This document shows positions 35,679 through 59,300 of a DNA stretch of 64,000 nucleotides, one piece after another (within the stretch, counting starts at the first letter, position 1; the number at the start of each line of letters is the position of its first letter). The position numbers and the translations under genes were made by a program. The stretch is taken from the NCBI GenBank assembly GCA_002789955.1, contig PFUG01000212.1, positions 357-64,356 of the forward strand, given 5' to 3'. The DNA comes from Deltaproteobacteria bacterium CG_4_9_14_3_um_filter_63_12 (lineage in GTDB: Bacteria > Myxococcota_A > Bradymonadia > UBA4248 > UM-FILTER-63-12). The notes under the pieces were generated by a model that searched no databases, had not been told where the DNA came from, and saw nothing but the letters and a program-made list of their open reading frames with translations.

Positions 35679-36079
35679 ATCGGGGATCTCCTTGCCAATT
35701 CGGAACGGGCGCACATCGGAGCCAAAAACGCGGGCATCATAGGATGAGACAACCGACGGGGAAAGCGAGCGCAAGCAGAGGACGACCGCTTGAGTTGGAC
35801 AGCGAGCGAGAACGGGATCAGCGGTCAGCATAGTGCGCTGCTGCCTTCGAAACAGTCCGGTGTCGCCGAGCGCGCGAAATCCAATCGTTGACACTGCGCG
35901 GTGCATCTTTGAGACTAACGGCGGTTTGGGTGTCGCCGCATCGGGCCGCGTTCGACCAAGCCCCGCGACGGGTCGCTGTGGGTCGGAAAGCTCGGACCAC
36001 ACAGGTGGCCGCACTCGAAGACTGTCTGGCTAGCTATAGCTATTATCCATCGAGGATTTGCATTCCAAAGGAGGTGACG

Positions 36080-37793: not shown

Positions 37794-38027
37794 CCTTCGC
37801 GCTTGGGTGGCCGGGACCCAACCCTGTGAGCTTGCTTCCTACGATGTGGCAAACGGCTCACGGCGTTGGGCCTCGTGGTCTCAGGCGAAGGTTCTTGCTC
37901 GCCCAGAAAGCCCGTTGTTCAGGTCGACTTCGTGGTCAACAGCCGGGTCGGTTGAGGCCGGGCGGGGCGTGGCATACGTCGTGCACCGGGCCTCCGGCAA
38001 CGCGACCCCCGCGAAGGAGAACTCAAG

Positions 38028-38936: not shown

Positions 38937-40685
38937 ATGACCGTCGAAAATACTTTTTGGGGGCCCGTTCGCCTCGTACTGGCCGCACTGGTCGCGCTGA
39001 CGTTCCCCGCTCAGGCGTGGGGGCAGGACTTCGACTTCAGCGAAGGAGGCGAAGGCGGCGGGGGCGACATGGACTTCAGCGACGGCGGCGACGGCGGCGA
39101 CAGTGGCGGCGGTGACATGGACTTTGGCGGCGAAACGCAGCCGCTGGTTCAGTACACGGTCGACGAGACGTCCCCGACGTTCAAGACCATGAGCGAGGCC
39201 GACAGCTACAGCAAACAGAACCAGAACTACCAGGCGAGTCTGCTTTATTATCAGGTGCTTCAGGCCACTGATGACACGGCAAAGGCGCTGCGCAGCCGAA
39301 CTCACTATGAGCTTGGTCGCACCCTGTTCCAGCTCGGGCTCTACCAGTCGGCGTTGACGCAGTTCGACAAGATTCTCCAGGAGGGGCCTGCCAGCGAATT
39401 TTTCATGCCGACTCTCCAGTGGTTGGTTTTGATCGCCCGCGAGCTTCCGGGAGACCCGGCGAAGGCGTCCCGCATCTACGACAACTACCTGAACATGTTC
39501 CCCGATCAGATCGAGCCATCATTGCTGGCTGAGGTGGGGTTGCTCATGGGGCAGGCCGCCTACTCGAATGGGTTGCTCAACGACGCCATCTTCTTCCTCG
39601 GGCATGTGGACGAGAACAGTGAACTCTACCCGAAAGCTCGCTTCATCGAGGGCGTAACCTTTGTCCGTCAGTATGATGGCAAGCAAGCCGTCGAAAGCTT
39701 CAAGCACATCCTTCGCTGGGTCAAAGCGCAGCCGAACCCGACCCCAGACAACCTGCGCATGGAGGAGAAAGCGATCGCGTCTTTGGGGCGCGTCTTCTAC
39801 CAGGTCGGACACAACCTCTGGGTGGACGGGGAACGGCCCAAGGCCGTGAGCAGCTGGAACACCGCCATCAAGTACTACGCGCTATTCGACCAATCGAGTG
39901 AGATCTGGCTCGATTCCCTTTTTGAGGCGAGTTGGACGTACTATCGCGTTGACAACTTCAACAAGTCGCTGGGTCTCCTCCACACGTTGAACAGCCCGTT
40001 CTTTAACGACGAGTACTATCCCGAGGCGATGCTGTTGCAGGCGCAGATCTACTTCACGAACTGCCACTACGACCGCGTCATGTACATCCTCGAAGAGTTC
40101 AAGGAGCTCTATCCGCCGCTGAAAGAGCGGCTGGAGAGCCAGCTGACCAATCTGATCCAGCCGGAAGATGTGTTCAAGTTCCTGTTGGAGCTCAGGGAGG
40201 GGACGGGCGAGTTCGATCCGACGACCAAGCAGGTGGTGAACGCCGCTCTTCAGGACCGTGAGCTGAGTCGGATGCTTGCTTATATCGATATGTTGGACGC
40301 GGAGATCGCGCAGATCAAGAACGCTGAGAAGGGATGGTCCAGCCATCCTTTGGCGAAGTCCTTGATTCAGGATATCGAGTTTACGAGGGAGTTCGCGTCA
40401 GCGACCGCAGGCAACATGGCCAAGTCGAGGCTGGAGCGTGTCGTCGACGAGCTGAGCGACCTGATCAACAAGAGCCTGGACATCGAGATCGAGACGACTG
40501 AGAAGTTCGCGGGAATGGCCGAGCAGTTGGGAGCCGATCCGGCGAGTCGCCAGGAGTTCGAGAAAGAAATCAACCAGATGATGGCGGCGGACGACGAGCA
40601 TCTGTTTTGGACCTTTGGGGGCGAATATTGGCGAGATGAGCTCGGGTACTACTGGTACTATTTGACGTCTCGTTGTGGGCGCTGA
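38937..40685 (+). CDS. Secreted TPR-repeat protein with N-terminal acidic (D/G/F) repeat
   Basis: Signal peptide LVLAALVALTFPAQAWG. The DFDFSEGGEGGGGDMDFSDGGDGGDSGGGDMDFGGE repeat is followed by TPR-like helices. Confidence 0.8.
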   Translation: MTVENTFWGPVRLVLAALVALTFPAQAWGQDFDFSEGGEGGGGDMDFSDGGDGGDSGGGDMDFGGETQPLVQYTVDETSPTFKTMSEADSYSKQNQNYQASLLYYQVLQATDDTAKALRSRTHYELGRTLFQLGLYQSALTQFDKILQEGPASEFFMPTLQWLVLIARELPGDPAKASRIYDNYLNMFPDQIEPSLLAEVGLLMGQAAYSNGLLNDAIFFLGHVDENSELYPKARFIEGVTFVRQYDGKQAVESFKHILRWVKAQPNPTPDNLRMEEKAIASLGRVFYQVGHNLWVDGERPKAVSSWNTAIKYYALFDQSSEIWLDSLFEASWTYYRVDNFNKSLGLLHTLNSPFFNDEYYPEAMLLQAQIYFTNCHYDRVMYILEEFKELYPPLKERLESQLTNLIQPEDVFKFLLELREGTGEFDPTTKQVVNAALQDRELSRMLAYIDMLDAEIAQIKNAEKGWSSHPLAKSLIQDIEFTREFASATAGNMAKSRLERVVDELSDLINKSLDIEIETTEKFAGMAEQLGADPASRQEFEKEINQMMAADDEHLFWTFGGEYWRDELGYYWYYLTSRCGR

Positions 40686-40723
40686 ACGACGGCATGCAAG
40701 AAGAGAAATCTGGAGTGAGTTCT

Positions 40724-43700
40724 ATGTTTAAGTCAGGTCAGCTGTCCCTCGCATCGCTGAGGGGTGTTTGGGTTATTCTCGCCGTGCTCGCGCTCTACCC
40801 GGTTGCGGGTTGGTCTCAGGGGAACCCCTTCGACGGCGAGGACGCCCAGAAGGAAGAGGCTGCAGTCGAGCAGTTCGAGCGCAAGAAGGTCGAGCGCCCC
40901 GACATCAGCGAGGAAGAAGGCAAAGGCCCGAAGCTCGAACGTGAGTCGAACATCAAAGGGTGGGAGCGCTCCAAGCTGCAATATCAAGACAAGGCCATCC
41001 GCTTGATGGAAGAGCGTGTCGAGAAGGCAGATGAAGACGACCCTGACTATCCCCTCTACCTCGAACGTCTCTCGGAGATGTACTGGCAGAAGGCGCGGTT
41101 CCACGACCTCAGGGCGTTCGACCGTTTGACGGAGTCTCGCGAAGCCGAGGACGCAGGCAATGCCTCGAAAGCCGCCGAGCTGGTGCGAGGCCAAGAGGAA
41201 GACGAGAAGACCGCTCAGGAGTATCGCGAGAAGACCATCGCGACGTACGCCCGCATCATCAAGGAGTTTCCGCTTTACGACAACTCCGACAAGGTGCTCT
41301 TCTACCTCGCCTTCAACCTCGGCGAAATGGGCCGGGCCGAGGATGCCAATGGATTCTACAAAGACCTGGTTCGCGACTACCCGAACACGGACTATCTGGC
41401 TGAGGCCTACCTCGGACTGGCCGAGTATTCCTACCTCTACGACGACATAGACCTTTCGCTCTCCCAGTATGAGTCGGCCATTGCGGCGGCTCCCGACTCC
41501 CAGACCGCTGGTTACGCGATGTACAAGATGGGCTGGTGCTATTTCAACCGCGGCGAGCCGAAGAAAGCCCTGGCTCAGTTCGAGTCCGTCGTGGCCTACA
41601 GTGAGTCGCATACCGGGCGCATCGAGCTGCGCAAGGAGGCCGTAAAGGACCTCGTCAAGGCGTACAGCCTGTGGACCGAGGCGAGCCCGAAGAAGGCCAA
41701 GGGTTACCTCGGCAAGTTTTCCAGCGGGGATGAGGAGCTGCGAGAGATGCTCGAGCGCCTGGCGCGGCTCTATCAAGAGGATGGCGAGGTCGACAAGTCG
41801 ATTTTCGTCTACAACGAGCTGATCAAAGACAACTCGACCAACTTTCGGATCGTCGGCTACCAAACCGAGATCATGCTCAACGTCGAGACCAAGAACGTCC
41901 CAGACCAGACCGCTGAGGAGGTTATCCGCACAGTGCGGCTGTTCAATGCAGCGCGAGAGCAGAAGCTCGAGGGCGCAACAGAAGAGGCGGTCAAGGAAGC
42001 GTACGCACTCCTGGAGGAGTACACGCGTGAGACCGCCAAGTGGTACCACCTGACCGCTCAAACGACGAAAAATCCCCTGTACTACGCGCTCTCGTACGAG
42101 ATCTACAAGGCCTACGTGGACAACTTCCCGGAGGCTCAAGACAACTACGAGATGATGTATTACTACGGCGAATTGCTCTACTGGAAGAAGAACTACGCCG
42201 AGGCGGCCAAGCGCTACGACCAAGTCTTGGCCATTGATGCCGCGGGGAAATTCAGCCGCGACGCCGCCTACGGTGCGGTGTTGTCGTACAACAAGGTCTC
42301 AGAGACTCCGACCGCGGAGTGCCCGCCGATTCCAGTGGTTCCGGAGCCGAAGAAGGGGGAAGAGCCGACTTTCCCCGAGCTCACGATCGCAGACTGCCGG
42401 GTGAAGCTCATCGCGGCGTGTGGACGTTATGCCGAGGTCGTGCCGGACGGTGAACACATCGTCGACATCAAGTACACCGCAGCTCGGATCTACTACGACC
42501 ACAATCAGTTCGGGCCCGCGGTAAAGGCCTTCGAGGACATCGCGATGAACCATTCGGAGAACCGTTTGGGCATCATCTCCGCGAACCTTCTGCTCGACTC
42601 ATTGGGCATCGAAAAGGACTACAAGCAGATGTGGGAGTGGGTCCTGAAGTTCCGCGCCAACGAGCAACTCAATCGGCCGCCACTCGACGACATCCTTGAG
42701 ACACTGGAAACCGAGCTCGCTTTCAAGTTCTGCATCGACAAAGAGACCGAGAAGCTGTGGAAAGAGTCCGCGATGTGTTTCGAGGAATACGCAGGAAAGT
42801 ACGCGACCGCCTCCTACGCACCCAAGGCTTTGTGGAATGCGAGCGTCGATTGGGAGAACGCCTCTGAAGTCGGTAAGGCCATCGAGACCCGCATCCGCCT
42901 CCTTAAAGAGCACGGCGACGACGACTACCTCGCCCCGAAGGCGCTCTACGCGATCGGCCAGAACTTCCACGGCATCGCGGTGTATTCGGAGGCAGCTCGG
43001 TTCTACGAGATGTTTGTCGACAAATACCCCAAGAACGACACCGCCTGCGCACCGGACGGTGAGTCCTCGGAGAATGTCTGCTCCATGTCCGCGCTGCAGA
43101 ACGCCGCGGCGTTCAGAGGCGGCTTGGGTCAATACGAGAAGGCCGTCGAAGACTACGACCGATATATCGTGATGTTCCCCAATGACAAGGCGCAGATCTC
43201 GCTGCTCAAGTTCAACACCGGTCGAATCTATTTTGACCAAGGGCTCTACGAAAAAGCCATCGAGCGCTACAACGAGTATCTGAGCCGTTACGCGAAACTG
43301 GGACCAGAGGGACGAAAGGTCGCCGCGATGACCGCCATCGGTCGCTGCTACTGGAAAAACAAAGATCGTCACGCCGGACTGAAGTCCTTCGAGAAAGCCG
43401 AGAAACTCTACGACAGCAAGCCCTTCCAGAAGTGGTTGGCTGGCGCGGATCCCGAAGCGGTCAAAGAGGCAAACGACGCCGCAGCGGAGGCTCGGTTCAT
43501 GCGCGGCGAAGGGATCTTCTTCGAGGCGCTGGCCATCCGCCTCTCGGACGAGACCATCGAGAGCGCGACGAAGTCTGGCAATTTTCTGAAGAGGCAGCTG
43601 ACAAAGAAGGCCGCGCTGATGCAAGAAGCCAAGCCCATCTACGTCGAGGTCATCACCAGGTTCAACAACCCCAAGTGGGGTCTTGCGGCGATGTGTCGCC

Positions 43701-44140
43701 TCGGGATGATGTATCACGACGTGGCCGACCAGATTCAGAACGCTCCAATCCCAAAGGAGCTCGACGAAGACCAGTCGCTCATCTACGAGGATCTGCTGTT
43801 GGAGTTCGCCGACCGTTTCGAGACCGAGGCGATCGGGTACTACATCACGGCAGTAGAGAAGGCCGCCGACTTGGGCTGGTTCAGCACCTACACGACGTTG
43901 GCGCAGAGGCGACTCTTCGACCTGCGGCCAGAAGAGTACCGGTCGGCTTCCGAGATCAAGGCGCAGCCGGACCGAGCCTCCGTCACCTGGCACAAGTCCA
44001 AGCTCTATGTGGATGTTGAAGCTGCAGCAGGTCGCAAGGCCAAGAAGAAGCGCGGCGCAATCGATCTCCAATCCAACGAGATGGAGAAGGTCAAGGGCGA
44101 AGGGGACGTTGACCCAGAGGGTGTCAAAGCCCCTGAGTGA
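40724..44140 (+). CDS. Periplasmic TPR-repeat protein, 1138 aa (AgmU/GltD-like by size, TPR content and position)
   Basis: Signal peptide MFKSGQLSLASLRGVWVILAVLALYPVAGWSQG. TPR repeats throughout. GGAG RBS. The ORF track starts at an upstream TTG at 40673. Confidence 0.8.
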   Translation: MFKSGQLSLASLRGVWVILAVLALYPVAGWSQGNPFDGEDAQKEEAAVEQFERKKVERPDISEEEGKGPKLERESNIKGWERSKLQYQDKAIRLMEERVEKADEDDPDYPLYLERLSEMYWQKARFHDLRAFDRLTESREAEDAGNASKAAELVRGQEEDEKTAQEYREKTIATYARIIKEFPLYDNSDKVLFYLAFNLGEMGRAEDANGFYKDLVRDYPNTDYLAEAYLGLAEYSYLYDDIDLSLSQYESAIAAAPDSQTAGYAMYKMGWCYFNRGEPKKALAQFESVVAYSESHTGRIELRKEAVKDLVKAYSLWTEASPKKAKGYLGKFSSGDEELREMLERLARLYQEDGEVDKSIFVYNELIKDNSTNFRIVGYQTEIMLNVETKNVPDQTAEEVIRTVRLFNAAREQKLEGATEEAVKEAYALLEEYTRETAKWYHLTAQTTKNPLYYALSYEIYKAYVDNFPEAQDNYEMMYYYGELLYWKKNYAEAAKRYDQVLAIDAAGKFSRDAAYGAVLSYNKVSETPTAECPPIPVVPEPKKGEEPTFPELTIADCRVKLIAACGRYAEVVPDGEHIVDIKYTAARIYYDHNQFGPAVKAFEDIAMNHSENRLGIISANLLLDSLGIEKDYKQMWEWVLKFRANEQLNRPPLDDILETLETELAFKFCIDKETEKLWKESAMCFEEYAGKYATASYAPKALWNASVDWENASEVGKAIETRIRLLKEHGDDDYLAPKALYAIGQNFHGIAVYSEAARFYEMFVDKYPKNDTACAPDGESSENVCSMSALQNAAAFRGGLGQYEKAVEDYDRYIVMFPNDKAQISLLKFNTGRIYFDQGLYEKAIERYNEYLSRYAKLGPEGRKVAAMTAIGRCYWKNKDRHAGLKSFEKAEKLYDSKPFQKWLAGADPEAVKEANDAAAEARFMRGEGIFFEALAIRLSDETIESATKSGNFLKRQLTKKAALMQEAKPIYVEVITRFNNPKWGLAAMCRLGMMYHDVADQIQNAPIPKELDEDQSLIYEDLLLEFADRFETEAIGYYITAVEKAADLGWFSTYTTLAQRRLFDLRPEEYRSASEIKAQPDRASVTWHKSKLYVDVEAAAGRKAKKKRGAIDLQSNEMEKVKGEGDVDPEGVKAPE

Positions 44141-44207
44141 GCGCGAACCGGTGTCGCAATCCAACGGGCTCGACGGGCTATGCCCGAGATTTGAAAGAGG
44201 TAATGAA

Positions 44208-45737
44208 ATGAGTGTCGTGCGCCTCCCCTTCATCCTGATAGTGCTCTCCATGCTGGCCATAGCATGCGGCCCGCCCAGTGGGCCGGAAAATCCCCTCGAC
44301 AAAGACGGGGGCAAAGAGTCCCAGCAACTCGTCCGCGAGGAAGCACTGAAGAAGTTCGAAGAGGGCATCGCCATCTTTCGTACGAACCCCGTGAAGGCAA
44401 AACAGCTCTTCGAGGAAGCCGTCGATGAGGATGAGACCTTTGGCGAAGCTTGGTACAACCTGGCGCTCGTCCAAGAGTCGGCGGGCGATATCCCGGGTGC
44501 AATCACCTCCTACGAGAACGCGATCAAGTCGCGCCCAGACATGGCTGAGCCCAACGTCAACCTCGGCGTCATTCTCCTGCAGAAAGGAGAGCGCGAGAAG
44601 GCGAAAGAGCTCTTCATGAAGGTCGTCAACGAGACCAATGGGATCGATCCTTTCAACGTCGAGGCAAACCTCGACCTGGGCATGATCTATCGGCTCGAGG
44701 GCGAGGAGATCGTCGCCAAAGACAACATCGGCAAAGACTTATCGACCCAAATCAACGAAGGCGAGGTCGTCGAGCGTGACATCGTCGTCAGCGACGAGGC
44801 CAAGGTGCGTTTCGCCGAAGCCGTGAAGAACGTTCGCCGAGCCCTCGCCGGTGACTCGAACAACATCACGAGCTACGAGAACCTCGCTGCGATCTATTAC
44901 GATCTCGACAGCCTCGAGGTCGCAACGTTGGTGTGCCAACAGGCTATTCAGAAGGAGATCGACCGCAATGCGGAGCTCGAGGCGCAGCTGGCGGCGAAGC
45001 AGATCACGCAGGCTGAGTTCAACGAGCACGAGATCACTGCCGTACAAATGAGCGCGGTCTACAACACGTTCGGGCTGGTTTGGATGGCTCGCGGTGAGGT
45101 CGCTCTGGCCTACGCGAACTTCAAGACCGCAATGGAGCTCGACCCTGTGTCCACAGAGGCGTTGTTCAACGTCGCTGGAATCGCCGTCAACGTGCAAGAT
45201 TACGCGATGGCCTACCAAACCTACGGTGATATTCTCAAGACCGAGCCCAACAACCGTGAGGCACGCTTGAGCCAAGCCGTTGCCGCACGTGGTTTGGACA
45301 ACCTCGCCGAGGCCGAGCAGGTCTACGATGCGCTGCTCAAGGACGACCCGACCTATTCCCCCGCGACCTTCAACAAGGCGGTTCTGTATCAGGAGTACCA
45401 CCGTGACTTGGTCAAGGCGAAAAGCATTTACGAGGAGTTCATCGCCATGCCGGCCGCAGCCAAGCAAGCCCCTGCATACGTCGCCGAAGCGCAACGCCGG
45501 GTGAAGCAGATCGAGGACATTTGGGAAGCGCAGAAGAAGGCAGAGGAAGAGCAGAAGAAGATCGAGAAAGAGATGAAAGAGCTCGAGGAGCTCCAGAAGC
45601 AGCGGGACAAGGAATACGAAGACGCGGAGAAAGCAGAGAAGGCGGCGGCAGAGGCCGCTGCGGGAGGAGGCGCTGCGAACGGCGAAACCCCTCCCGCTGA
45701 CGGAGAGAAAACACCGGAGACGCCCGCCACACCTTGA
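44208..45737 (+). CDS. TPR-repeat lipoprotein, 509 aa (AglT/GltE-like) with K/E-rich coiled-coil tail
   Basis: Lipobox LSMLAIAC. TPR repeats. C-terminal EEQKKIEKEMKELEELQKQRDKEYEDAEKAEK. AGAGG RBS. Confidence 0.85.
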   Translation: MSVVRLPFILIVLSMLAIACGPPSGPENPLDKDGGKESQQLVREEALKKFEEGIAIFRTNPVKAKQLFEEAVDEDETFGEAWYNLALVQESAGDIPGAITSYENAIKSRPDMAEPNVNLGVILLQKGEREKAKELFMKVVNETNGIDPFNVEANLDLGMIYRLEGEEIVAKDNIGKDLSTQINEGEVVERDIVVSDEAKVRFAEAVKNVRRALAGDSNNITSYENLAAIYYDLDSLEVATLVCQQAIQKEIDRNAELEAQLAAKQITQAEFNEHEITAVQMSAVYNTFGLVWMARGEVALAYANFKTAMELDPVSTEALFNVAGIAVNVQDYAMAYQTYGDILKTEPNNREARLSQAVAARGLDNLAEAEQVYDALLKDDPTYSPATFNKAVLYQEYHRDLVKAKSIYEEFIAMPAAAKQAPAYVAEAQRRVKQIEDIWEAQKKAEEEQKKIEKEMKELEELQKQRDKEYEDAEKAEKAAAEAAAGGGAANGETPPADGEKTPETPATP

Positions 45738-45805: not shown

Positions 45806-45909
45806 TTTCATTCCACTAGTCGGTCGACAGAACTTGGATTATGATGGCCGACGAAGTGAAATCCACTGAGGGTCGCATTCGGCGCGGCCTTGTAGGGAGA
45901 GGTTCTGGA

Positions 45910-46155
45910 ATGAGTACGATCTTCAAGGGTATCGTTGCCATCACATTGACCCTGTCTCTCGGCGGTGTGGCTTGGGCGCAGGACGCTGGCGCCAAAGTGA
46001 AGGAGATCAACTTCGAAGACGACACAATCGAAGGCGAACTCCAGATGCCAAATCAGACGAACATCCGAGGCGATGATATGGGCGACCTGTCGAGCCTAAT
46101 CAAGGCGAGAGAGGACTTTGTCGATGAGATGTTGAAATCCGTCGAAGACCTCTGA
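45910..46155 (+). CDS. Small secreted protein, 81 aa (PglI/GltF-like by size and position)
   Basis: Signal peptide MSTIFKGIVAITLTLSLGGVAWA. Acidic mature peptide. GAGAGG RBS. Confidence 0.55.
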   Translation: MSTIFKGIVAITLTLSLGGVAWAQDAGAKVKEINFEDDTIEGELQMPNQTNIRGDDMGDLSSLIKAREDFVDEMLKSVEDL

Positions 46156-46328: not shown

Positions 46329-48503
46329 ATGGCAAGCACAACCCCACTGCGGTTCGACATTTACAAAGGGGACCAAATCATCCAGACGGTGACCCTCGAG
46401 CAGACCCCAATCAAGATTGGGAAACTGCCGAGTTCGCACCTGCGGATCGACGATCAGAAAGTCTCTCGAATCCATGCGGTAATTGAGCCGGCGAGGGATG
46501 AGGGTTTCCACATCATCGACCTTGGGAGTTCGAGCGGGACGTTCGTCAACGGTGCGAAGGTCAACAAGCAACGATTGAACTCTGGCGACGAGATTACGTT
46601 GGGTGACACCAAGATCGTCGTGGTGATTGAGTCCGAGTCTGAGGCGGAGTCAGAGGCGACCATGTTGTCTTCTCTGGACGCCTTGGGTGCGGCGGCGGCC
46701 CCCATGGCAGCCGCGCCAATGGCCCATGATTCCAACGAGGTGTTCGCCGGAGGCGGGATTCCTAACATGGGCCCCATGGCTGGCTTGCCTGCTGCCAATC
46801 CGGCGACCAATGCTGGATTCGCGATGCCAAGTGCGCCGCCGGCGTTTGGAGGAGCCCCCTCGGTTTTTGGACTTCCACAGCAAGGCTTCGGGCAGTCGGC
46901 CATGAATCCGCTCGCCGCAGGGGGATTCGGAGTCGCACAGGGACAGCTCAGTGCTTCCCCATTTGGGCTCCCGCAGCCGGCGCCCGCGCCAGCACCCGTC
47001 GTGATGGCGCCCGCTCCTCAACCGGTTCGTCAGCAAGCCAAACCCAAAGATAATTTTGAACGGCGCTTCCTTTCCGAGTCCTACAAGGGCGGAGCGGGTG
47101 CCCTCGAAGTGGCGTTGCTCTGGCGTGGGAACCTCTTCCACATCGACCAGTACAAGAAGGCCGCGAACATCACCATCGGCTCCAGTGCTGACGCAACCTA
47201 CGCGGTGGAAGCCGCTGCGGTTGGCCCGATTCGGCCCTTCGCTCTGCATGCAGGCGGCGAGTGGACCCTCTATTTTACCGACGAAATGGATGGCTTCATC
47301 CTCGTCGATCCGAAAAAGACCGGCGGCAAGGAGAAGCTCTCACTGAAAGAGGCTGCAGCCATCGGCTTGGCACAAAGGTCTCCCGATGGCTGGGCACTCC
47401 CGCTCAGCGGCTCGACTCGGGCGAAGATCAGTGTGGGGGACGTCGTGTTCCTCATCCACTACATCTCGCTGCCAGTCTTGAGCATGCCGCTCATCGCTCT
47501 GGGCGGCGCGGCTGGGGCGAGCCTAATCGTCTCACTCGTAACCTTCGGCGTCTCGTTCCTTCTGCACAGCGGATTCTGGGTGCTGGTCTCCTTCACGACG
47601 GATCGCGTCGATGCGCTGACTATCGACCAGCTGATGAGTGACTCTGCGTTCGCGGAGGCCCTCATCACCCCGGAGCAGGAAGAGGAAGAGGAGCCAGAGG
47701 AGGAGGAAGACAAGGAAGAAGAGGACGCACCTGAAGAAGACGAGGGCGCGCGCGCCGCTGAAGAAGAAGGCGACGTCGGCAAGCCAGACGAGACCGCACT
47801 GGAAGGGAAATTCGCCATCGAGGGCAACGACGACAACATGGCGTTGCGCAAGGCCTACAACACGCAAGTCGCGATGGGAACCGGCGTTCTGAGCGCGAGC
47901 GAAGAGATGGAGTCCCTTCTCGGCGGCGGTTTGGAAGCTGCAGGTTACGATGCCGTCAGCGCATGGGGTGAGTTCGATTCCACCGCAGCAGCCGGAAACA
48001 CTGCCGGTAACTACGGTCTCGGTATGAGTGGAGCGGGGCGTGGTGGTGGTGGCTCGAACGTCGGTGGCTTTGGCGTCGGTCGATTCGGCACCGCAGGACG
48101 AGGTGGTGGCGGCAGTGGTGGTCGGAACTATGGCAGCGCGGCAGCCTCTCTCGGTGACAAAGCTGTCGGAGCGCCGAAACTCAAGCCAGGACGCCCTGAT
48201 GTCTCAGGCTCGCTCGACAAGCGAATCATTCGAAAGGTTGTCAACCAACACAAACGAGAGATCAAGGCCTGTTACGAGAAAGAGCTCGCGAAGAAGAAAG
48301 GTCTGTTCGGAAAGGTGGTCGTCAAGTGGACCATTGATCAGTCAGGGAACGTCCCGTCAGCGGTTGTGGTCTCGACGACCATGAACAACAAAGAAGTCGA
48401 GAAGTGTCTCTCTAGCGCTATCTCCTACTGGCGATTCCCTGCACCGAGGGGAGGAGGGTTGGTCATCGTCTCCTATCCGTTCGTCTTCGAGGTCGGGAAC
48501 TAG
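46329..48503 (+). CDS. FHA-domain protein with low-complexity linker, TM helix, polyacidic stretch, Gly-rich region and C-terminal TonB_C-like domain (AgmV/GltG-like)
   Basis: FHA motif GSSSGTFVNG..L..GD preceded by IGKLPSSHLRIDDQKVSRIHAVIE. TM helix LIALGGAAGASLIVSLVTFGVSFLL. EQEEEEEPEEEEDKEEEDAPEEDE. The C-terminal VVKWTIDQSGNV..ISYWRFPAP has a TonB-C/TolA-like fold pattern. Confidence 0.85.
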   Translation: MASTTPLRFDIYKGDQIIQTVTLEQTPIKIGKLPSSHLRIDDQKVSRIHAVIEPARDEGFHIIDLGSSSGTFVNGAKVNKQRLNSGDEITLGDTKIVVVIESESEAESEATMLSSLDALGAAAAPMAAAPMAHDSNEVFAGGGIPNMGPMAGLPAANPATNAGFAMPSAPPAFGGAPSVFGLPQQGFGQSAMNPLAAGGFGVAQGQLSASPFGLPQPAPAPAPVVMAPAPQPVRQQAKPKDNFERRFLSESYKGGAGALEVALLWRGNLFHIDQYKKAANITIGSSADATYAVEAAAVGPIRPFALHAGGEWTLYFTDEMDGFILVDPKKTGGKEKLSLKEAAAIGLAQRSPDGWALPLSGSTRAKISVGDVVFLIHYISLPVLSMPLIALGGAAGASLIVSLVTFGVSFLLHSGFWVLVSFTTDRVDALTIDQLMSDSAFAEALITPEQEEEEEPEEEEDKEEEDAPEEDEGARAAEEEGDVGKPDETALEGKFAIEGNDDNMALRKAYNTQVAMGTGVLSASEEMESLLGGGLEAAGYDAVSAWGEFDSTAAAGNTAGNYGLGMSGAGRGGGGSNVGGFGVGRFGTAGRGGGGSGGRNYGSAAASLGDKAVGAPKLKPGRPDVSGSLDKRIIRKVVNQHKREIKACYEKELAKKKGLFGKVVVKWTIDQSGNVPSAVVVSTTMNNKEVEKCLSSAISYWRFPAPRGGGLVIVSYPFVFEVGN

Positions 48504-48779: not shown

Positions 48780-49841
48780 ATGCGAGCCATTTCTGTGTCG
48801 TTGATCGCATCGATCCTCATCGCGTTCACAGCGGTTTTCAGCGCGTGTGACACATCCTACGTGGATTCGACGGACCACATGAACGAAGGGATCAAGCTCT
48901 ATTCGGCTGGACAGATTTCCAAAGCGCTTGACGAGCTCAAGAAAGCGATCGAGATCTACCCCGAAAACCACAAAGCGCACTACCAGATGGGCATGATCTA
49001 CAACAGCCCACGTGTCAGCGATTTCGTGAAAGCGGCGGAGGCTTTCAAACGCGCGACCGAGATCAGCAAGGATAACGGCGAATATTGGTACTATCTCGGG
49101 GCGGCGAATCACAACGAAGGCAACAAGCTGGTCGCGGATAAACGAGGCAGCGACGCCGTGAAGTTCTTCGAGGCTGGCCGAGACGCGTTTATCCAAGCGG
49201 TCTCTGCCGATGAGTACTACGCGGAGGCCTATTATCGGTTGGCTCAGATCTACCGGGAGTTGGGGGACATTTCCAAGGCCATTGACGCCTATTCGAACTC
49301 GATCAATTCGGATCCGACGCTGACGAACGAGCAGGGCACCGCCATTGGTTACCTCGAGCTCGGGATGCTGTATCTGGAGTACTCGTTCTTGGACGAGGCG
49401 CTCCAGGTCCTGCGCAACGGTGTCGCCAACAACCCTGACGACGTTCAGCTGCAGGCGCAACTGGGCAACGTGTACCTCGCACAAGATCGATTCGAAGAGG
49501 CCAATCATCACTTCGAGAAGTCGTATGAGACCCAGCAGCGATTGGGGGGGCCGAACGAGCACATTCTCCCGGCCCTATACGGCCTTGGGCTCTCCTATGC
49601 GTCTCTTGGGGACGCAGCGATGCTCAAGTCGGACATCGGTGGTGCGATGAAGCAGTACGAAGAGTCGAGCAAATGGTTCGACACGTTCATCGCCAACGCT
49701 TCGGGCGACTCCCTTCAGGCCCAGCGGATCGCGGCAACCGGCAAGGTGACCGAGGTCAAAGAGATGATGAAGGAGCTCAAGGAAGGCAAGCTTCCGCAGT
49801 TCATCATCGATCGCCAGAAGATGGAATCGGCGCCCAAGTAG
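48780..49841 (+). CDS. TPR-repeat lipoprotein (353 aa)
   Basis: Lipobox AVFSAC. TPR repeats (AHYQMGMIY, EYWYYLGAA, AYYRLAQIY). AGGAGA RBS. Confidence 0.8.
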   Translation: MRAISVSLIASILIAFTAVFSACDTSYVDSTDHMNEGIKLYSAGQISKALDELKKAIEIYPENHKAHYQMGMIYNSPRVSDFVKAAEAFKRATEISKDNGEYWYYLGAANHNEGNKLVADKRGSDAVKFFEAGRDAFIQAVSADEYYAEAYYRLAQIYRELGDISKAIDAYSNSINSDPTLTNEQGTAIGYLELGMLYLEYSFLDEALQVLRNGVANNPDDVQLQAQLGNVYLAQDRFEEANHHFEKSYETQQRLGGPNEHILPALYGLGLSYASLGDAAMLKSDIGGAMKQYEESSKWFDTFIANASGDSLQAQRIAATGKVTEVKEMMKELKEGKLPQFIIDRQKMESAPK

Positions 49842-50318: not shown

Positions 50319-53300
50319 ATGAGCGACCACCACGAGACGGATTCGACCCCCACCCCTGACGCCGAGAACCCCGAGGAGAGCGCCCTCGTTGGGGCCGTCT
50401 TGGACGCAGAGGACGCGGCCGAGGCGCTCGATGAGCACGCCGGAGATGAGTTGGAGGGATCTGGCGAGGCTGCGGCGTCCGAAGAGGCCTCACCGGCTGA
50501 TGGTGAGGCCCCGGATGCTGATGGCGACATCGACGTCGACGAGCAAGAGCCGAGCGAAGACGCGGCCGATGAAGCTGAGCCTTCTGACGAGGTTGTGGAG
50601 GTCTCGTGGGAAGACAAGGCGGAGGCCCTGATTGCAGGCGCTGCCGCTGCTTCCTCTCCCGAAGAGAGTTTGTCGAAGTACGTTGCGGCGATCTTGCTCG
50701 CCGATCAGAACGCTCCTGGGGACGGACGAATCGCAGAGACTTGGGGCGATGCGCTGCAAAGAATCCCTGGGTTGGCGCGCGAGTTGTGGGCGCGGCTCAG
50801 CGGCAGAGTGACGTCCGAAGTGGATGTTTGGGAGCAGATTTCCATCGCCCACCAGGTCAACTCGACGGACGCCGATGGAGACGAGGCGCTCGCCATTTCA
50901 GAGGCTTGGGGTTGGGTTCAGGTGCTTCGCTCTGGAGAGGTCGAGGCAGGGAAGGCTCGTTTGCAGGCTTTCGCCGAAGGCGACGCCAACGGCTATTCCG
51001 CAGCGATTCTCGAGGCCGTGATTTCGGCTGAGAGTGGCAACTGGAGGAAGGTCGAAAGTGAGATCAAGGATCGGCTGGCCGCGACCGGTCTCGACGGAGA
51101 GCCGCTGGCCGCCGAGGTTGCGTTACGACTTGCTGATGTGAGCATGGGGCAAGCGGCTAGGGACCGTGCGGTCGAGGTCCTTCGACGCGCACAGCGCAGC
51201 GATCCCGAGCACAGCAGCCTTCGCAACCGGCTGACGGTGCTCTATCGAGACACCGCAAAGTGGAACGCCTACGTCGATCTCCTGAAAGAGGCAGTGGCGC
51301 GCACCCCTGATCCCGAAGAGCAGGTCAGCATCTACTTCGAGATGATCCGCATCTACACGGATCAGATGCACCTCGAAGCGATGGCGGTGAAAGCCTATGA
51401 GTCACTGTTGCTGATCGAGCCGACGAACGAGAGGGCGATCGGTGCGCTCGCCGCGGCTTATGAGTCCTCGCGTCGTTGGCCGGACTTGGTCTCATTGCTG
51501 CGTGGGCAAGCGGACGCGGCCAAATCTGCTGCGCGCCGTGTGGCGCTGAACTACCGCATCGCCGTGGTGTACTTGGACAACCTCTCCCGTCAAGTCGACG
51601 CCATCAAAGCGTTCGAAATGGTCTTGGAGGACTCGCCCTACCACGAAGAGACGATCGCACACCTCAAAGACCTCTACGGTCGGCGAAGGGAGTGGGAGAA
51701 GCTCATTGATGTTCACAAGGCGGAGATCAGCCGCCTCGCCGATCCATTTGAGCAAGCCGAGCGGCTGAAGGAGGTCGCGGAGATTGCAGACAAGCTGCGG
51801 CAGCCATCTATCACCGCGTTGATTTGGAGCGAAGTGCTCGAGCGTTCTCCGAAGGACGAGGCAGCTCTTTCGGCCCTCGAAGGGCTTTACGAGAGAGAGA
51901 AAGATTGGCCGAAGCTGGCGGACATCTGCGAGCGAAAGGCCACCCTCGAGGAGGATCCGGCGGAACAGCTCAAACTCTGGACGAAGCTCGGCGGGCTGTA
52001 TGGAAGCAGCATCCGTGACTCGGAGGGAGCGATCCGGGCTTGGCGCGCTGTTTTGATGTTGGAGCCTGGTCACACCAAGGCCTCCGATTCTTTGCGCAAG
52101 CTCCTCATCGACACGAAGAAGTGGGACGATCTCGAGACGTTCTACGCTGAGCAGGATGCCGGGGCCGAGCTGGTCCGCGTCCTGGAAACCCTCGCCAACA
52201 CCTCGAAAGAGGACGCCGATGTCGTCGAGCTGCGCTTCAGAGCCGCTCGCGTCTGGCGGGATGATCTGGGGAACCCCGATCGCGCCGTGGCTTCGCTCGA
52301 GAAGGTCTTCGAGACCGACGCTGCGAATGCACGAGCCGCAGCCGAGTTGGCCCCCCATTACGAGTCGATCGCCGATCACGCCAAGTTGGTCGCGATGTTG
52401 GAGATCCAGCACGCGGCGGAAGATGGCCTGGAACGCCGCGTCGAGCTGGCTCTCAAGATCGCGACGCTGAACGAGAAGTCCCTCAACGATTTGGCGGCAA
52501 GCTACCGTTGGCTCGCGTCCGTCATCGAGCAGAAGCCTGACCACGACGCCGCCTACGACGCCTTCGAGCGCGTCGGCATCCAGCTCGACAAGGCCGCTGA
52601 CGTCGTCAAACGCTACCGCGATGCGAGCAGCAAGGTCGAGACCGAAGTCGAGCGGCAGGAGTTGACGTTCAGGATGGGCATCATTTTGGCCAACCAGCTC
52701 GGCAAAGTCGACGCAGCCCTCGCTATGTTCGAGTCCATTCTCGAGCAGGAACCCGACAACCTCAAAGCTCTCGGCGCGCTGGAGCGGATCCTCGAACAGA
52801 CAGGGCGCTTCGACGAGCTGATCCAGGTCAACGAGCGTCGGCTAGGATTGGCGACCACGCCTGCGGAAGAGGCCGAGATCCTGCTCTCAGGGGCGCGGAT
52901 TCACGAGCAGCAGAGAGGGGACAAGGTCACCGCGATCGAATCGTACGAACGCGTGCGGGAGTTGGCCCCGAAGAATCAAGCGGCCTTGATCGAGTTGCAT
53001 CGCCTGTACAAGGAGCGAGGCGACTGGGAGGCGATGGCCAACGCCATCCGTGCGCGCCTCGCGTTGATGGCCGAGGCGGCCCCTCGGCCAACAAAGAGGG
53101 TGGAGCACCGCAGCCCCGTCCAGTTGGACGAGGACGGTCATCTCGACGCACCAGCTGGAGCCGACCTCGACGAAGACGCCGACGGGAACGTCTTTGTTGT
53201 TCGCGTCGAGGAGGTCATCGACGAGACGGCAGAGCCACAGCTCGAGGCGAGCGTGGCCATTCCGCTGTGGATGGAGTTGGGCAGCGTGGTCCAACACGAG

Positions 53301-56300
53301 CTCGCCGAGTACGACGAGGCCATCGGCTGCTATCGCCGGATCATGGAAACGGACATTGAGAACGAGGCAGCGCAAGAAGCCTTGGAGACCCTTCTCGGCG
53401 AAGGGATCGAGGCTGGGCGAGTCGCTACGATTCTCGAGCCCGTCTACGCGTTCCAAGCGGACTTCGACGCGCTGGTCAAGGTGCTCTCGATCCAGTTGGA
53501 GCATAACACCGTCAAGGACCAGCAGATCGTCTTGTGGACCCGAGTCGCGGGCTTGCAGCGCGATGAACTCGGCGATCAAGAATCGGCCTTCGAAGCGTAT
53601 GGGAAGGCTCTCGAGCTCTTACCCGCCGACGACGAGGTCTTCGGCCAGCTTTCGAGCGTCGCTGCGGGCTTGGACGACATTCCGCGACTGGCAGCGAAGT
53701 TGGAGAGCATCACAGAGTCTATCGAGGACGAGCGGCTCCGCACGTCGTATGAGTTGCGGCTCGCTGGGATCTACGAGACCAGCCTCGACGACATCGAACG
53801 CTCGAGGGACTTTGCCCGCTCCGCTCTGCAGCGTGGTGGGAAGGACCCGGCGGTTCTGGAGTCCCTCGAAGCTCTACACACACGCACCGAGTCTTGGGAC
53901 GATTTGCTCGCGGTTTTGTCGAAGCAGAAGGGCCGAGTGGCAGAGGAGCCTGAACGGGTGCTCGCCCTCAACCTTCGGATTGCCTCGGTCAAAGAGGAGC
54001 TGCTTCAGGATCCGGAAGGCGCCATCGAGGTGTACCTCGAGGTCCTGAACGCCGATGGCGCCAACGAGCAGGCGCTGGCAGCCCTCGACCGGCTCTACGC
54101 CGACCTCGAGCGCTGGGACGAGGCCGCTTCGAACTTGGGCCGAAGACTCGAGCTCCAAGAAACCGAAGCGGGGCGCGACGCGGTGCATTGCCAACTCGCG
54201 AAGGTCCTGGATCGCCACCTCGGTGAGTCGGAGCGAGCGATTGAGATCTACACCGAGGTCTTGGGACGCGACTCACAGAACGCGACGGCGATCTTGGATC
54301 TCGAGGCGATGCTCGAGACGGCAGATCCCATCCCCGCCGAGTCGATCATGGAGCTGCTGCTGCCGCTCTACGACGCGGCTGGAGACTGGAGGAAGCGCGC
54401 CTGGGTCAATGAGAAGATGCTGCGGGTCGTCGACGATACACAGCGCCGGGTCGCGCTGTTGGCGGAGATCGCCAACCTGCACGAGAGCCAAGGGCAGGAG
54501 TACGAAGAGGCCTTTATCGCCTACTCTCGTGCGCACACGGAAGACCCGACCGACGAGAACACTCTCGAGCAGCTCCGCCGTTATGCGGAGGCGTTGGACG
54601 TCTGGCGCGAGTTGGTGGAGGTGATGCAGACCGCAGCAGAAACCATCGCCGATGGCACTCAGGCTAAAGAAGCGCAGATTCGCATCGCTTCGATCTACCG
54701 CGACAATCTCGCCGATCTTGAAGGCGCGACGACAGCTTACGAGCGTGCCAGCGAGTACGACCCAGAGGACACCAGCATTCTCGATTCGCTCGAGACGATC
54801 TACCGAGAGCGTTCCGCCTGGGAACCCCTCACCGCGGTTCTCGCCAAGAAGGCAGTGCGCTGCGAAGATCTCACGGAGAAGAAGGAGTACCTCTTCCAGG
54901 CTGCCATTCTCTGTGAAGAGATGCTCGAGCGGATGGACCGTGCCACCGAGATGTACCAAGAGGTCTTGAGCCTCGATTCCGAGGATCGGACCGCCATCGA
55001 CAGCCTCGAGCGACTCTATCTGAGCACCGAGCGCTGGAACGACTTGATGTCGATCTACAACATCAAGATCGAAGCGGCGCAGACGCCCGAGCAACAGCTC
55101 GAGCTCTACTACATCGTTGGGGCCTTGCAGGAGCGCGAGCTCGACGACAACTACGGTGCCATCGAGACCTACCGCAAGGTTTTGGACATCAACTCTGACG
55201 ACCCCCACGGTCTCGAGGCGCTTGACCGGCTGTATACGCTGGTCGAGGACTGGATGAATCTCCTCGAGATCCTGGAGCGAGAAGAGGCGACGGCCAGCGA
55301 TCCAGATGCCAAGCTCGAGCTGCGCTTCCGCCAAGGCGACGTGTGGAGACTCAATCTCAACGAGTCGCTGCGCGCGATCGAGGTGTACCGCAGTGTTCTC
55401 GAGGTGCACTCGGCGCATGAGGCGAGCATCGCCGCTCTCGAAGCGGTCATCGCCAGCGGAGAGAACGGGGTCGATGCCGCGAAGGTGCTCGAGCCAGTCT
55501 ACAAATCGGCGGCTGAGTGGGAGAAGTTGGTCGCGGTCTATGAGGTGATGTTCGAGCAGTCCGAGGACGAGCAAGGCCGAATCGAGCTGTTGAGCACGAT
55601 CGCCATGATTCGTGAGGACATGCAGGGCGATGCTGCGGCTGCATTCGACGTCTGGATTCGGGCGCTCCACCAAGATCCTCGAGACGCGACGGCTTGGGAG
55701 ACCTTGCAGCGCATCGCCGCTGTGATGGACCTCTGGGACACTCTCGTTTCGAAGGGAGGAGAGATCCTCGCCAAGACCGAGGAGAGCGATGCGGCAAGCA
55801 TCGTCGCCAGTCACTTGGCCCGTATCTACGAGGAGAATATTGGCTCGCCGACCGACGCCATCTCGATGTGGGGCCGTGTACTCGAGGTCGAGCCCGCGGA
55901 GCCCACGGCGATCGCCGCTCTCGATGGTCTCTACGAAAGGCAAGCCATGTGGCCCCAGCTGGCCGAGACACTGTCCCGAGAGATCGAGCTGGCCACCCGC
56001 GAGGAGGACATTCTCAGATTCCGTCTGCGCCTGGGGACCCTTTACGAGAACTTCTTGGAGGACCTGAGCGAAGCGATCAGTTGCTACAACGAGATGCTGA
56101 TGCTGCAGGCCGGAAACGCGGATGCCGTCGCCTCTTTGGAGCGCATGTTCGCAGCCGGTCAAGAACAGCTCGCCGTTGGTGGGATCTTGGAGCCGTTCTA
56201 CCGAGACACCGAGCAATGGGACAACTTGGTCGGGATCGCGTTGGCCCTATTGGAGCATTTTGAGACCGCCACGGAGCGCTATCAGAAGCTCCTGGACATC

Positions 56301-59300
56301 GCTGAGATCTACCTCGGACCGCTATCGAACGCAGCCAATGCCCTCTTCGTCTATGGTCGTGCTCTCGTCGAACGCCCAGGGGACGAATTCGCTCTCACTC
56401 GCTTGAGCGAATTGGCGGAAATCACACAGTCTTGGGAGGAGGCAGTGGACTTCCTCGCCGCCGCTTTGGACGCGTCCGAAGAGCCGACGGTCCAAAGGGA
56501 ACTGTTGTGGCGCATGGCGACAGCCTACAACGACGAGATCGGCAACTTCGAGCAAGCAGAGCACGCCTATTTGCGAGTCTTCGAGGTCGACCCCGAAGCG
56601 CTCGACGCCATGCAGGCCCTCGATAAGCTCTACCTCGAGCAGTCCCGGTGGGACGATCTGGTCAACGTCTTGCGTCACGAGATCGCCCTTTCTCAAGGCG
56701 ATCACGAGAAGATCGAGCTCTACCTGCGGTTGGGTCAGATCTATGAGGACATGATCCAGAACTCAGCCGCTGCGGTGCAATCTTTCCGCCTGGCCCTCGA
56801 GCTCGAGCCCTCACAATCGGAGGCGCTCGCTGCCCTCGAACGAATCCACATGCAAAGTGAGGAGTGGGAGCTCCTCTACGCCGTCTACAGTCAGCAATCG
56901 ACCATCGCCGACAGCGAAGAGGTGCGTTCGGAGATCTGGGCCAAGATGGCCAACCTCGCCGCCGAGGTCCTCGACCGCCGCAACGACGCCATCGAGCTCT
57001 GGTTCCAAGTGCTCGACGCCCGAGGGGCAGATCTCAACGCCCTCCAGAACCTCGAGCGGCTCTTCGAGTACGATAAGCGCTGGCCTGACATGACCGACGT
57101 CATCGAGCGCCAGGTGCCATTGGTTCAGACTGCCGAAGCGCAGCTGGAGCTCTTCCGCAAGCTCGGCAGAATTTGGAGCGGGCCTCTCGAGAACGAGGAG
57201 AGAGCCCTCGAGTATTGGCGTCGCGCCATGGACGTCCACCAAGAGGACCTCGAGACCCTCTGCGCCATCAAGCAGATCGATGAGAACCTCGGCGACTATG
57301 AAGACCTGGTGGACATCATTCGCCGCATCGTCGCGCTCGGCGTTTTGGAGCACGAGGTTCAGCTCGCCCATTACGTGCAGCTCGGCGAGATCTTGAGCCA
57401 GGTCCTCATTCGCTCGCAGGAGGCGATCGACACTTGGATTCAGGTCCTCCAGCTCAATCCCGCCCACCTCCAGGCGCTGGTCGCGTTGGAGCAACTCTAT
57501 GTCGACGAAGCTCGATGGGAGGAGGCTGTCGACGTCCTCGACCGCAAGGCGGACGTCGTCGAAGACTCGAACGAGGCGCTCAACATTCGCATGCAGATCG
57601 CCGAAATCTGGGAGAACCAGGTTGGCAATGCCGAGCTCGCAGCGGCGGCCTACGACAACGTCCTGGATATGGATCCAGCCAACAACGACGCGTTCCTCCG
57701 CCTCGAGACTTTGCACACCAACGGTGAGAACTGGCAACAGCTGCTTGGCCTCTACGTCACACGCGCCGAGGTGATCGAGGAGCCGAAGACCCGCCTCGAG
57801 GTGCTGCGGCGGGCCGCCAGCATCGCCGAAGAGCGCCTCGACCAACCCGAGATGGCCTTTGTCGTGCTGCAGACGGCGCTGGCCGATCACTGGCGCGATT
57901 CGACCATCGCCAATGAGCTCGAGCGGCTCGCTGACGTGACGCGAAACTGGCGAGAGCTGGTCGGGATCTACGAGCAGATCATCGAGACGGTGAAGGACCC
58001 TTCCGAAGCCCTCGAGCTCCACAACAACGTCGCCCGTTGGTACTTCCACAAGCTCAACGACAACGAGAAGTCCTGGCAACACTTCCAGTTCGTGCTCTCG
58101 CTCGACCCCAACAACCTCAACGCGCTTGCGGCTCTCTCGAAGATCTACGAGCGGCTGGGCAGCTGGCAAGAGCTGGTCAACGTCCTGGTTCGTCGCGCCG
58201 AGTTGACCCAAGAGGTCGAAGACAAGATCGAGCTCTACACGCAGATCGCCGTCGTCTGGGAGGACAACCTCTCAAACGAAGCGCAAGCCATCGAGGCGTT
58301 CCGACAGGTTCTCGCGCTCGATGAAGGCAACCTCAACGCCTTGCGTCAGCTCGAGCGCATCTTCCAAGGAACTCAACAGTGGGAGGAGCTCGTCGACGTG
58401 CTGGAGACACTCTGCCAGGTCGTCTACGAACCTGCGGACGTCGTCAAGATGCGCTATCGCGTCGGCGAGATCTGGGAGACCTGCCTCGAGGTCGACCAGA
58501 AGGCGATCGATTCTTACCGGCAAGTCCTCACCATCGAGGAGACCCATGCGCCCGCTCTCGATGCGCTGGAGCGACTCTTCACGCGACTCCAGCAGTGGGC
58601 GGACCTCATCGGTGTCTACGAGGCGCAGCTGACCTCTGCGGAGTCTGGCGACGAGCAGATCGCGCTCTACCTCAAGATGGCAACCGTCTATGAGGAAGAG
58701 TTCGGTGACGTCGAGAACTCGATCGCCTGCATGCAGCGCATCACGATGGTCGATCCGGCGAACTTAATGGCCATCCAGACCCTCGAGCGTCTCTATCGCG
58801 ACAACGGACGCTGGCCGGACCTGATCGACGCACTCACGACCCACATTAGCATCGTCTACGACCGAAAGGAGCAGATCGAGCTGTACCGACAGCTGGGTGA
58901 GGTCTTCCGAGACCATCTCCAAGATGTCTACCGGGCCATCGAGAGCTTCCGGAATATCCTCGAAATCGACCCCAATCATTCGCTCGCCTTGGGGGCGTTG
59001 GCCGACCTCTACTACAACAGCGCCGACTGGCAGACCTGCATCGAGACCCTCAACCGCCTCGTCGCGGTCACCTTCGAAGTCGCTGACGGCGTCGAGCTCC
59101 AATATCGGATCGGTAAGATCTTCGAGGAGCATCTGGCGGAGTACGACCAGGCAGAAGAGCGCTTCCAGATCGCCCTCGATCTCGACGGCTCGTTCATGCC
59201 CGCCATCGATGCCCTGCAGCAACTCTACGAACGCCGCGAGGACTTCATCGGCGTGATCCGGATCCTGAAGCAGAAGGTCGAGCACACGGTCGACCTCGAG

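Follow-up and report, generated by a model that had tools for sequence, protein, structure and literature searches.

GltG of Myxococcus xanthus is described as a TonB/TolA-like transducer that binds, through its transmembrane (TM) helix, the TolQ-like protein AglR of the proton-driven AglRQS motor and extends with its periplasmic part to the periplasmic and outer-membrane complex of Glt proteins (PMC3169522, PMC3858216, PMC11761067). Here, we analyze a stretch of 64,000 nucleotides from contig PFUG01000212.1 of Deltaproteobacteria bacterium CG_4_9_14_3_um_filter_63_12 (the window) and describe a gene at 46329..48503 on its forward strand that encodes a GltG-like protein of 724 residues. Very probably, its product serves as the GltG of a surface-transport machine of the Agl-Glt type that spans the envelope (gliding, "bacterial focal adhesion") in an uncultured, Bradymonadales-related lineage of the Myxococcota.

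In two-hybrid assays, M. xanthus GltG and its paralog NfsG bind AglR; deletion of gltG abolishes gliding, and the localization of GltD in clusters depends on GltG (PMC3169522, PMC3858216). Proposals based on AlphaFold models have the TM helix and central FHA domain of GltG docking on AglR5QS, its N-terminal FHA domain binding six repeated sites in GltI, its disordered periplasmic segment sitting in a groove of GltD, and its TonB-like tail binding GltD and strand-pairing with GltF (PMC11761067). A literature search for glt clusters of Bradymonadales yielded only a passing mention of predation by surface motility in these bacteria (PMC8460266).

The glt cluster and the identity of the gene

Several observations make the protein a likely, if distant, GltG ortholog in a known machine. 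First, its top match among the NCBIfam models is NF033760 (gliding_GltG), with an E value of 4e-108 and 362.7 bits, in an alignment of two stretches of which the better one spans most of the model. Second, its tail scores above the cut-off of NF033768. Third, the models for GltC, GltE and GltF match the products of neighboring genes. Fourth, the gene order recurs in related genomes. Fifth, the domain plan, which was reproduced here, equals that of M. xanthus GltG (PMC11761067). The open reading frame (ORF) has GGAG at 10-13 nt 5' of its ATG. Most of its 86 homologs carry the same FHA/Yop-YscD Pfam matches and are ∼600-790 residues long, and a JGI metagenome contig (P0001) encodes an identical 724-residue protein. 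The run of genes to which it belongs, rich in tetratricopeptide repeat (TPR) proteins, is as follows.

38937..40685, + strand: gltC-like TPR gene (NF033756 gliding_GltC, E 1.4e-92, 311 bits, under the cut-off of 450)
40673..44140, + strand: gltD-like large TPR gene, 1155 aa (TPR Pfam matches, size and position, tblastn synteny)
44205..45737, + strand: gltE-like TPR lipoprotein gene, lipobox AIAC (NF033758 gliding_GltE, E 1.5e-26, under the cut-off)
45841..46155, + strand: gltF/cglF-like gene for a small secreted protein (NF033764 gliding_CglF, E 5.8e-14, under the cut-off; syntenic)
46329..48503, + strand: gltG-like gene, 724 aa (ATG to stop; NF033760 match; 86 homologs)
48780..49841, + strand: gene for a TPR lipoprotein of 353 aa, lipobox FSAC, at the place of gltH (TPR Pfam matches)
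50319..61622, + strand: gltI-like gene for a giant cytoplasmic TPR protein, 3767 aa (TPR matches throughout)

The gltC-like stop and the start (TTG) of the longest gltD-like ORF overlap by 13 nt (40673-40685), and this overlap, together with the short gaps along C-D-E-F-G, suggests a single operon. GltD of M. xanthus has 1191 residues (PMC3169522), and the length of its giant TPR protein GltI is given as 3822 aa (PMC11761067) or 4132 aa (PMC3169522). More than 25 loci have, downstream of gltG, a gene that the gltI-like protein of the window matches by tblastn (30-36% identity, 500-1450 bits). The 353-aa TPR lipoprotein has weak tblastn matches at the same position in ∼25 related loci and may, given this shared place, be a machine component specific to the lineage. 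At this place, M. xanthus carries gltH, a beta-barrel gene. Downstream of the gltI-like gene lies rsmI (16S rRNA 2'-O-methyltransferase; 61943-62845, + strand), where M. xanthus has gltJ, and an ORF with the GltJ plan (ZnR-GYF-TM-TonB tail) was not recognized anywhere in the window. Directly 5' of the gltC-like gene, a 378-aa OmpA-family protein and an unassigned 218-aa ORF are encoded at 36657-38684 (+ strand). Neither matches a Glt model. In one related locus (L010), an OmpA-like gene likewise lies upstream of gltC, so both may belong to the outer-membrane portion of the machine, as analogs of GltA/B/K.

A scan of the GTDB species representatives with an 11-sequence alignment identified more than 556 loci with relatives; 80 were kept, and related loci were fetched with 10-kb flanks. 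All 80 belong to Myxococcota or to unclassified metagenome-assembled genomes (MAGs). When each window protein was searched against them by tblastn, roughly 30 of the 80 had the order C-D-E-F-G-(small TPR)-giant TPR; these loci come from MAGs of Bradymonadia, Polyangia, Nannocystaceae and Sandaracinaceae. With 59% identity, P0002 is the closest relative; its locus keeps C-D-E-F-G, then diverges, and lacks an adjacent gltI. The best named relatives are from Persicimonas and Bradymonadales MAGs (∼35% identity), and identity to Myxococcia-type proteins is only ∼23-28%. In a simple BLOSUM62 neighbor-joining tree without support values, the window protein pairs with P0002, adjoins a gltI-linked Bradymonadales-like clade, and lies far from the Nfs-like proteins of Myxococcaceae. 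A long-branch clade of GltG-like proteins (P0011-P0025) also adjoins it. The gut/rumen label of that clade is a guess from two loci outside the tree, from MAGs of goat omasum (L005) and water buffalo rectum (L006); if it holds, finding glt-type genes in bacteria of the gut would be a surprise, the system being one for gliding in soil or sediment.

Several points weigh against the assignment to GltG. The score of 362.7 bits is far under the 650-bit equivalog cut-off of NF033760, and 355.7 bits are reached by a protein of Myxococcus eversor that is probably NfsG and whose locus has C-D-E-G but no gltI; for calibration, a Vulgatibacter protein (P0072) scores 796 bits and Polyangia/Sandaracinaceae proteins score 430-448 bits. 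Because a probable NfsG scores about the same, this score alone cannot separate Glt proteins from Nfs or other core-complex paralogs. We therefore take 362.7 bits to indicate a family member and likely ortholog, but not an "equivalog" by the NCBI criterion. Moreover, Pfam and NCBIfam searches of the 64-kb window, with E values up to 1 for unassigned ORFs, revealed neither an aglRQS/TolQR/ExbBD motor nor gltA/B/H/J/K or cglB. This result is consistent with the separate clusters in which these genes lie in M. xanthus (PMC3169522). Finally, the partner interactions proposed below come from work on M. xanthus, and for the most part they are AlphaFold predictions even there.

Part of this evidence bears on the strongest rival explanation, namely that the protein is a GltG/NfsG-family transducer of a nongliding machine, either an Nfs-like transporter of surface polymer or spore coat, or an ancestral "core complex" of the kind found by Luciano et al. 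outside gliding bacteria. The contiguous C-D-E-F-G run is an Nfs-like or ancestral layout, whereas M. xanthus has its gltC in another cluster (PMC3169522), and both the NF033760 score, equal to that of a probable NfsG, and the lack of the gliding-specific genes gltJ, gltH, gltK and cglB in the window fit this explanation. However, the 3767-aa gltI-like TPR gene follows directly, the protein adjoins the gltI-linked clade in the neighbor-joining tree, and surface motility has been suggested for the predatory Bradymonadales (PMC8460266). We regard a nongliding machine as improbable and, because of the adjacent gltI-like gene and the placement beside the gltI-linked Bradymonadales-like clade, favor a Glt-type over an Nfs-type assignment. 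A gltC-D-E-F-G-(TPR)-gltI gliding cluster of an uncultured Myxococcota lineage can be annotated in the window.

Domain architecture and the noncanonical FHA pocket

The original prediction, made from the sequence without database searches, had laid out the protein as FHA, low-complexity, TM, polyacidic, Gly-rich and TonB_C-like segments in a candidate inner-membrane transducer. Every listed element is present, although a folded second FHA-like domain at ∼257-381 had not been singled out. The transducer, too, is a real feature, but not a novel one; the prediction had recognized neither GltG nor the surrounding glt cluster. The parts of the protein are as follows.

46329..46640, + strand: N-terminal cytoplasmic FHA domain, aa 1-104, with noncanonical pocket K32/S46/H49/S69 (Pfam FHA)
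46641..47063, + strand: Ala/Pro/Gly/Met-rich cytoplasmic linker, aa 105-245 (composition)
47097..47471, + strand: cryptic second FHA-like domain, a beta-sandwich at aa ∼257-381 just ahead of the TM helix (AlphaFold2 and Foldseek)
47508..47597, + strand: single TM helix, aa 394-423, with S409-x3-H413 (motif 47553-47567; hydropathy, AlphaFold2 helix at model residues 150-179)
47664..47774, + strand: polyacidic periplasmic segment, aa 446-482 (composition)
47775..48137, + strand: conserved periplasmic linker ending in a Gly-rich double motif of the GTGRGGGG type, aa 483-603 (alignment conservation)
48201..48500, + strand: AgmX/PglI-type domain similar to the C-terminal domain (CTD) of TonB, aa 625-724, with Cys648/Cys693 (NF033768, AlphaFold2, Foldseek)

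The Pfam FHA model matches residues 28-92 (E 2.9e-18), and sequence matches in the PDB are to GarA/OdhI (E 1e-9), by alignment to which the register of the pocket was set. In the canonical phosphothreonine (pThr)-binding pocket, for which Rad53 served as reference (R70, S85, H88, T106, N107), the set is Gly-Arg, Ser-x-x-His and Thr-Asn. The window protein departs from it: Lys32, after Gly31, stands at the phosphate-binding Arg, and Ser68-Ser69 replaces the Thr-Asn pair, while Ser46, Arg47 and His49 are retained. This departure is a property of the family. In an alignment of 52 homologs, Lys takes the place of the canonical Arg in 43 and Arg itself is kept in 8, Ala stands at the Thr position in 26, and the Asn position is variable, with Asn outside the six commonest residues; in a separate set of 36 genome loci, Lys occurs in 28, Arg in 8 and Asn in none. 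Among the clades, the window, Bradymonadales-like and Polyangia-type groups typically have Lys and the clade that holds the equivalog-passing GltG typically has Arg, and Ser occurs in the Nfs-like proteins of Myxococcaceae; Asn at its own position is limited to 4 of 11 proteins in the gut/rumen-like clade and 1 of 3 in one group lacking gltI. The pattern of conserved Arg, Ser and Asn on which the original prediction had staked its FHA domain was thus largely absent, Ser46 being the only one of the three named residues that is strictly kept. A pocket that is noncanonical across the family speaks against a simple coupling to kinases and agrees with the predicted binding of the FHA domain to the GltI scaffold.

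The pocket also bears on a second rival explanation, in which the protein is an adaptor in Ser/Thr-kinase signaling whose N-terminal FHA domain reads pThr marks made by nearby Hanks kinases and relays them across the membrane. The kinases of the window are the following.

10782-12740, 16911-18467, 18876-20654 and 25692-27347, + strand: four Hanks-type Ser/Thr kinases, within 17 kb
33384-36014, − strand: PrkA-type kinase, 876 aa

Ser/Thr kinases are known to influence myxobacterial motility, and this general background, the presence of four Hanks kinases and a PrkA-type kinase, and a genuine FHA fold that keeps Ser46, Arg47 and His49 and has the basic Lys32 at the phosphate-binding position all speak for such an adaptor. 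Since Lys is basic, phosphopeptide binding is conceivable. With Lys for Arg and no Asn, however, kinase coupling loses its main argument, and the Thr (Ala/Ser) and Asn (variable) positions are not conserved in the family. Proximity is loose as well. Four kinases had been placed within 25 kb; all four exist, yet only the one at 25692-27347 lies less than 25 kb from the gltG-like gene and the other three are ∼26-36 kb away. Over the resulting distances of 19-36 kb, unrelated housekeeping and glycogen genes intervene, i.e., those for glycine dehydrogenase, Mur ligase, CAAX protease, glgC, GH57, CBM9, PrkA and OmpA-family proteins. Lastly, published modeling places the N-terminal FHA domain on repeated GltI sites (PMC11761067). 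We therefore do not retain the proposed coupling to Ser/Thr kinases and judge a kinase adaptor highly improbable.

As to the kinase region itself, the kinase at 18876-20654 has a C-terminal TPR region. Interleaved with the kinase genes are genes for a 1096-aa protein with a CehA/McbA-like metallohydrolase domain (13611-16901), a GNAT protein, a calcineurin-like phosphoesterase, glycine dehydrogenase and Mur ligase. A glycogen-related block (27609-33390, + strand) contains glgC and genes for a GH57 enzyme and a CBM9-domain protein, and a few bases of the CBM9 gene are shared with the end of the PrkA-type gene on the opposite strand.

Between the two FHA folds, the linker of residues 105-245 consists of 23% Ala, 16% Pro, 12% Gly and 6% Met and is poorly conserved in the family alignment. 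The AlphaFold2 model of residues 245-432, with a pLDDT (predicted local distance difference test) score of 86, shows a beta-sandwich at ∼257-381 and, after it, one helix of 30 residues at 394-423. Top Foldseek matches of the beta-sandwich in the PDB are the FHA domains 4h87 (kanadaptin), 1uht, 3po8 (Rv0020c) and 6hc1 (Bdellovibrio DgcB), with probabilities of 0.99-1.0; SMAD MH2 domains are also among the best matches. M. xanthus GltG is reported to have the same second FHA-like domain before its TM helix (PMC11761067). Helix 394-423 is the sole TM candidate and there is no signal peptide. With FHA folds on its N-terminal side and the Cys-pair domain on its C-terminal side, we infer a bitopic protein with a cytoplasmic N-terminus.

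Within the helix, S409-x3-H413 (followed by V420 and T424) has the spacing of the SHLS motif of TonB and TolA. In those proteins the motif couples TonB (S16/H20) to ExbB and TolA (S18/H22) to TolQ. Among 52 family members, the Ser is found in 45 and the His in 33. The window and Bradymonadales-like clades carry S-x3-H, as do most Polyangia-type proteins; the clade of the equivalog-passing GltG (Vulgatibacter P0072) and the Nfs-like proteins of Myxococcaceae lack it. The motif is not mentioned in the GltG literature cited here. The S-x3-H motif of non-Myxococcia GltG offers a mutational handle on motor coupling that M. xanthus GltG does not provide.

On the periplasmic side, the segment of residues 446-482 is 62% Glu plus Asp (51% Glu, 11% Asp) and includes EQEEEEEPEEEEDKEEEDAPEEDE at residues 449-472; the family consensus is likewise acidic here, with a PEExEEE patch. 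Farther on, residues 556-603 are 48% Gly with two RGGGGS motifs. The invariant Gly residues of the linker in the family alignments include G563, G570, G573-575, G582, G587, G590 and G592, and A515, S529 and D541 are also conserved, so this seemingly low-complexity periplasmic segment is conserved in the family. The homologous segment of M. xanthus GltG (428-543) has been modeled as wrapping GltD (PMC11761067).

The C-terminal domain scores 111.6 bits with the AgmX/PglI tail model NF033768, above the cut-off of 40. For the C-terminal 100 residues, Pfam TonB_C (PF03544) gives 22.9 bits, under its gathering threshold of 24.6, and TIGR01352 gives 27.1 bits, exactly its cut-off of 27.1; the NCBIfam model for GltJ matches only these last 100 residues, weakly, with 39.8 bits. 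That the C-terminus would have a TonB/TolA-like fold was borne out by the AlphaFold2 model of residues 612-724 (pLDDT 90.9). Its best PDB matches by Foldseek are all TonB CTDs, i.e., 6fip (Pseudomonas aeruginosa), 5lw8 (Helicobacter pylori), 2gsk_B (Escherichia coli TonB-BtuB) and 7zc8 (FusB), with probabilities of 0.98-1.0 and TM scores of 0.5-0.6 (maximum 0.62), and the C-terminal domains of TolA (2x9a, 1tol) rank after them. C648 and C693 are invariant across all clades, which fits a periplasmic disulfide and the name of NF033768, "myxo_SS_tail". A conventional TonB paralog that energizes TonB-dependent outer-membrane transporters for nutrient uptake would account for the TonB-CTD-like fold, the TIGR01352 score at cut-off, the S-x3-H in the TM helix and the label "TonB family protein" that some databases give to homologs; we reject this explanation, whose likelihood we consider negligible, because, unlike in TonB, the TM helix comes after ∼390 cytoplasmic residues that include two FHA folds, the spacer, acidic and rich in Gly, is not of the Pro-rich (EP/KP) type, Pfam TonB_C stays under threshold, the tail is of the Cys-pair AgmX/PglI subtype, and the gene is embedded in a glt cluster with no exbBD (MotA_ExbB/ExbD) gene in the window and no gene for a TonB-dependent transporter nearby.

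Proposed mechanism

Whereas the anatomy of the GltG-like protein and its gene context were observed here, the interactions with partners are proposed by homology to M. xanthus. In this proposal, the TM helix would dock, together with the FHA-like domain next to the membrane, on the pentamer of TolQ-like AglR in an AglRQS 5:2 proton motor that would be encoded elsewhere in the genome. Through its N-terminal FHA domain, the unit would be anchored to GltI, the giant TPR scaffold of the cytoplasm, and phosphothreonine is probably not needed for this contact. In the periplasm, the linker may run along GltD, and the TonB-like tail may bind GltD and GltF by beta-strand augmentation. By this route, work done by the motor would be carried across the peptidoglycan layer, to the part of the machine in the outer membrane. 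Because the same parts are found in the protein and the genes for partners D, F and I are present, transmission of motor work in the manner of TolA/TonB is the most likely function. Of the two couplings considered by the original prediction, the one that links a proton-motive-force-driven motor to periplasmic partners corresponds in essence to the published model of GltG (PMC3169522, PMC3858216, PMC11761067).

Taken jointly, the features of the locus also allow a bolder suggestion, which we find doubtful but possible. The Glt system of Bradymonadales-related bacteria might represent an earlier or alternative gliding motor, with TonB/TolA-type coupling through S-x3-H that was lost in GltG of Myxococcia and in NfsG, an FHA domain that acts as a phospho-independent clamp on GltI (Lys replacing Arg and Asn missing), a TPR lipoprotein at the place of gltH, and gltJ not adjacent. 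If true, this system would be simpler and more TonB-like, and could be used to dissect how the 5:2 motor pulls on the focal-adhesion complex.

Comparison with known systems

The closest described protein is GltG (PglI, MXAN_4867) of M. xanthus. The two share an N-terminal FHA domain, a central cryptic FHA domain, one TM helix, a long disordered Gly-rich periplasmic segment and a two-Cys AgmX/PglI tail, as well as a gene position after gltD-E-F and before the giant TPR gene gltI. They differ in the FHA pocket, where the window protein has Lys for Arg, and the TM S-x3-H of the window protein is absent from the clade of equivalog-passing GltG. The loci differ in that the window has gltC directly upstream, a TPR lipoprotein at the place of gltH, and no gltJ after gltI.

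NfsG of the Agl-Nfs spore-coat assembly machine of M. xanthus is a GltG paralog with the same plan that also binds AglR, and the C-D-E-F-G run of the window resembles nfsC-G. By contrast, in probable NfsG-type proteins of Myxococcus and Corallococcus the FHA domain is more degenerate, with Ser where Arg is canonical, and S-x3-H is missing; gltI does not adjoin their genes, and they sit on a distant long branch. GltJ (AgmX, MXAN_4862) shares the AgmX/PglI-type TonB-CTD-like tail and bitopic topology, but has cytoplasmic ZnR and GYF domains where the window protein has FHA domains (PMC11761067).

With TonB and TolA, the window protein has in common a bitopic topology, an S-x3-H helix, an extended periplasmic tether and a TonB-CTD fold, and it probably works like them, as a tether driven by a proton-motive-force motor. 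It differs from them in the two FHA folds of a large N-terminal region in the cytoplasm, its Cys-pair tail, its acidic and Gly-rich linker (Pro-rich in TonB, helical in TolA), a Pfam TonB_C score under threshold, and a window without exbBD or tolQR neighbors.

Altogether, the differences from the described systems, i.e., the Lys in the pocket, the S-x3-H motif, the TPR lipoprotein at the place of gltH, the lack of an adjacent gltJ and the contiguity of gltC with gltD, are variations within a known kind. The seemingly unusual architecture is the signature of GltG, which was described in 2011 and structurally modeled in 2025, and the role of GltG between motor and periplasm is the accepted working model.

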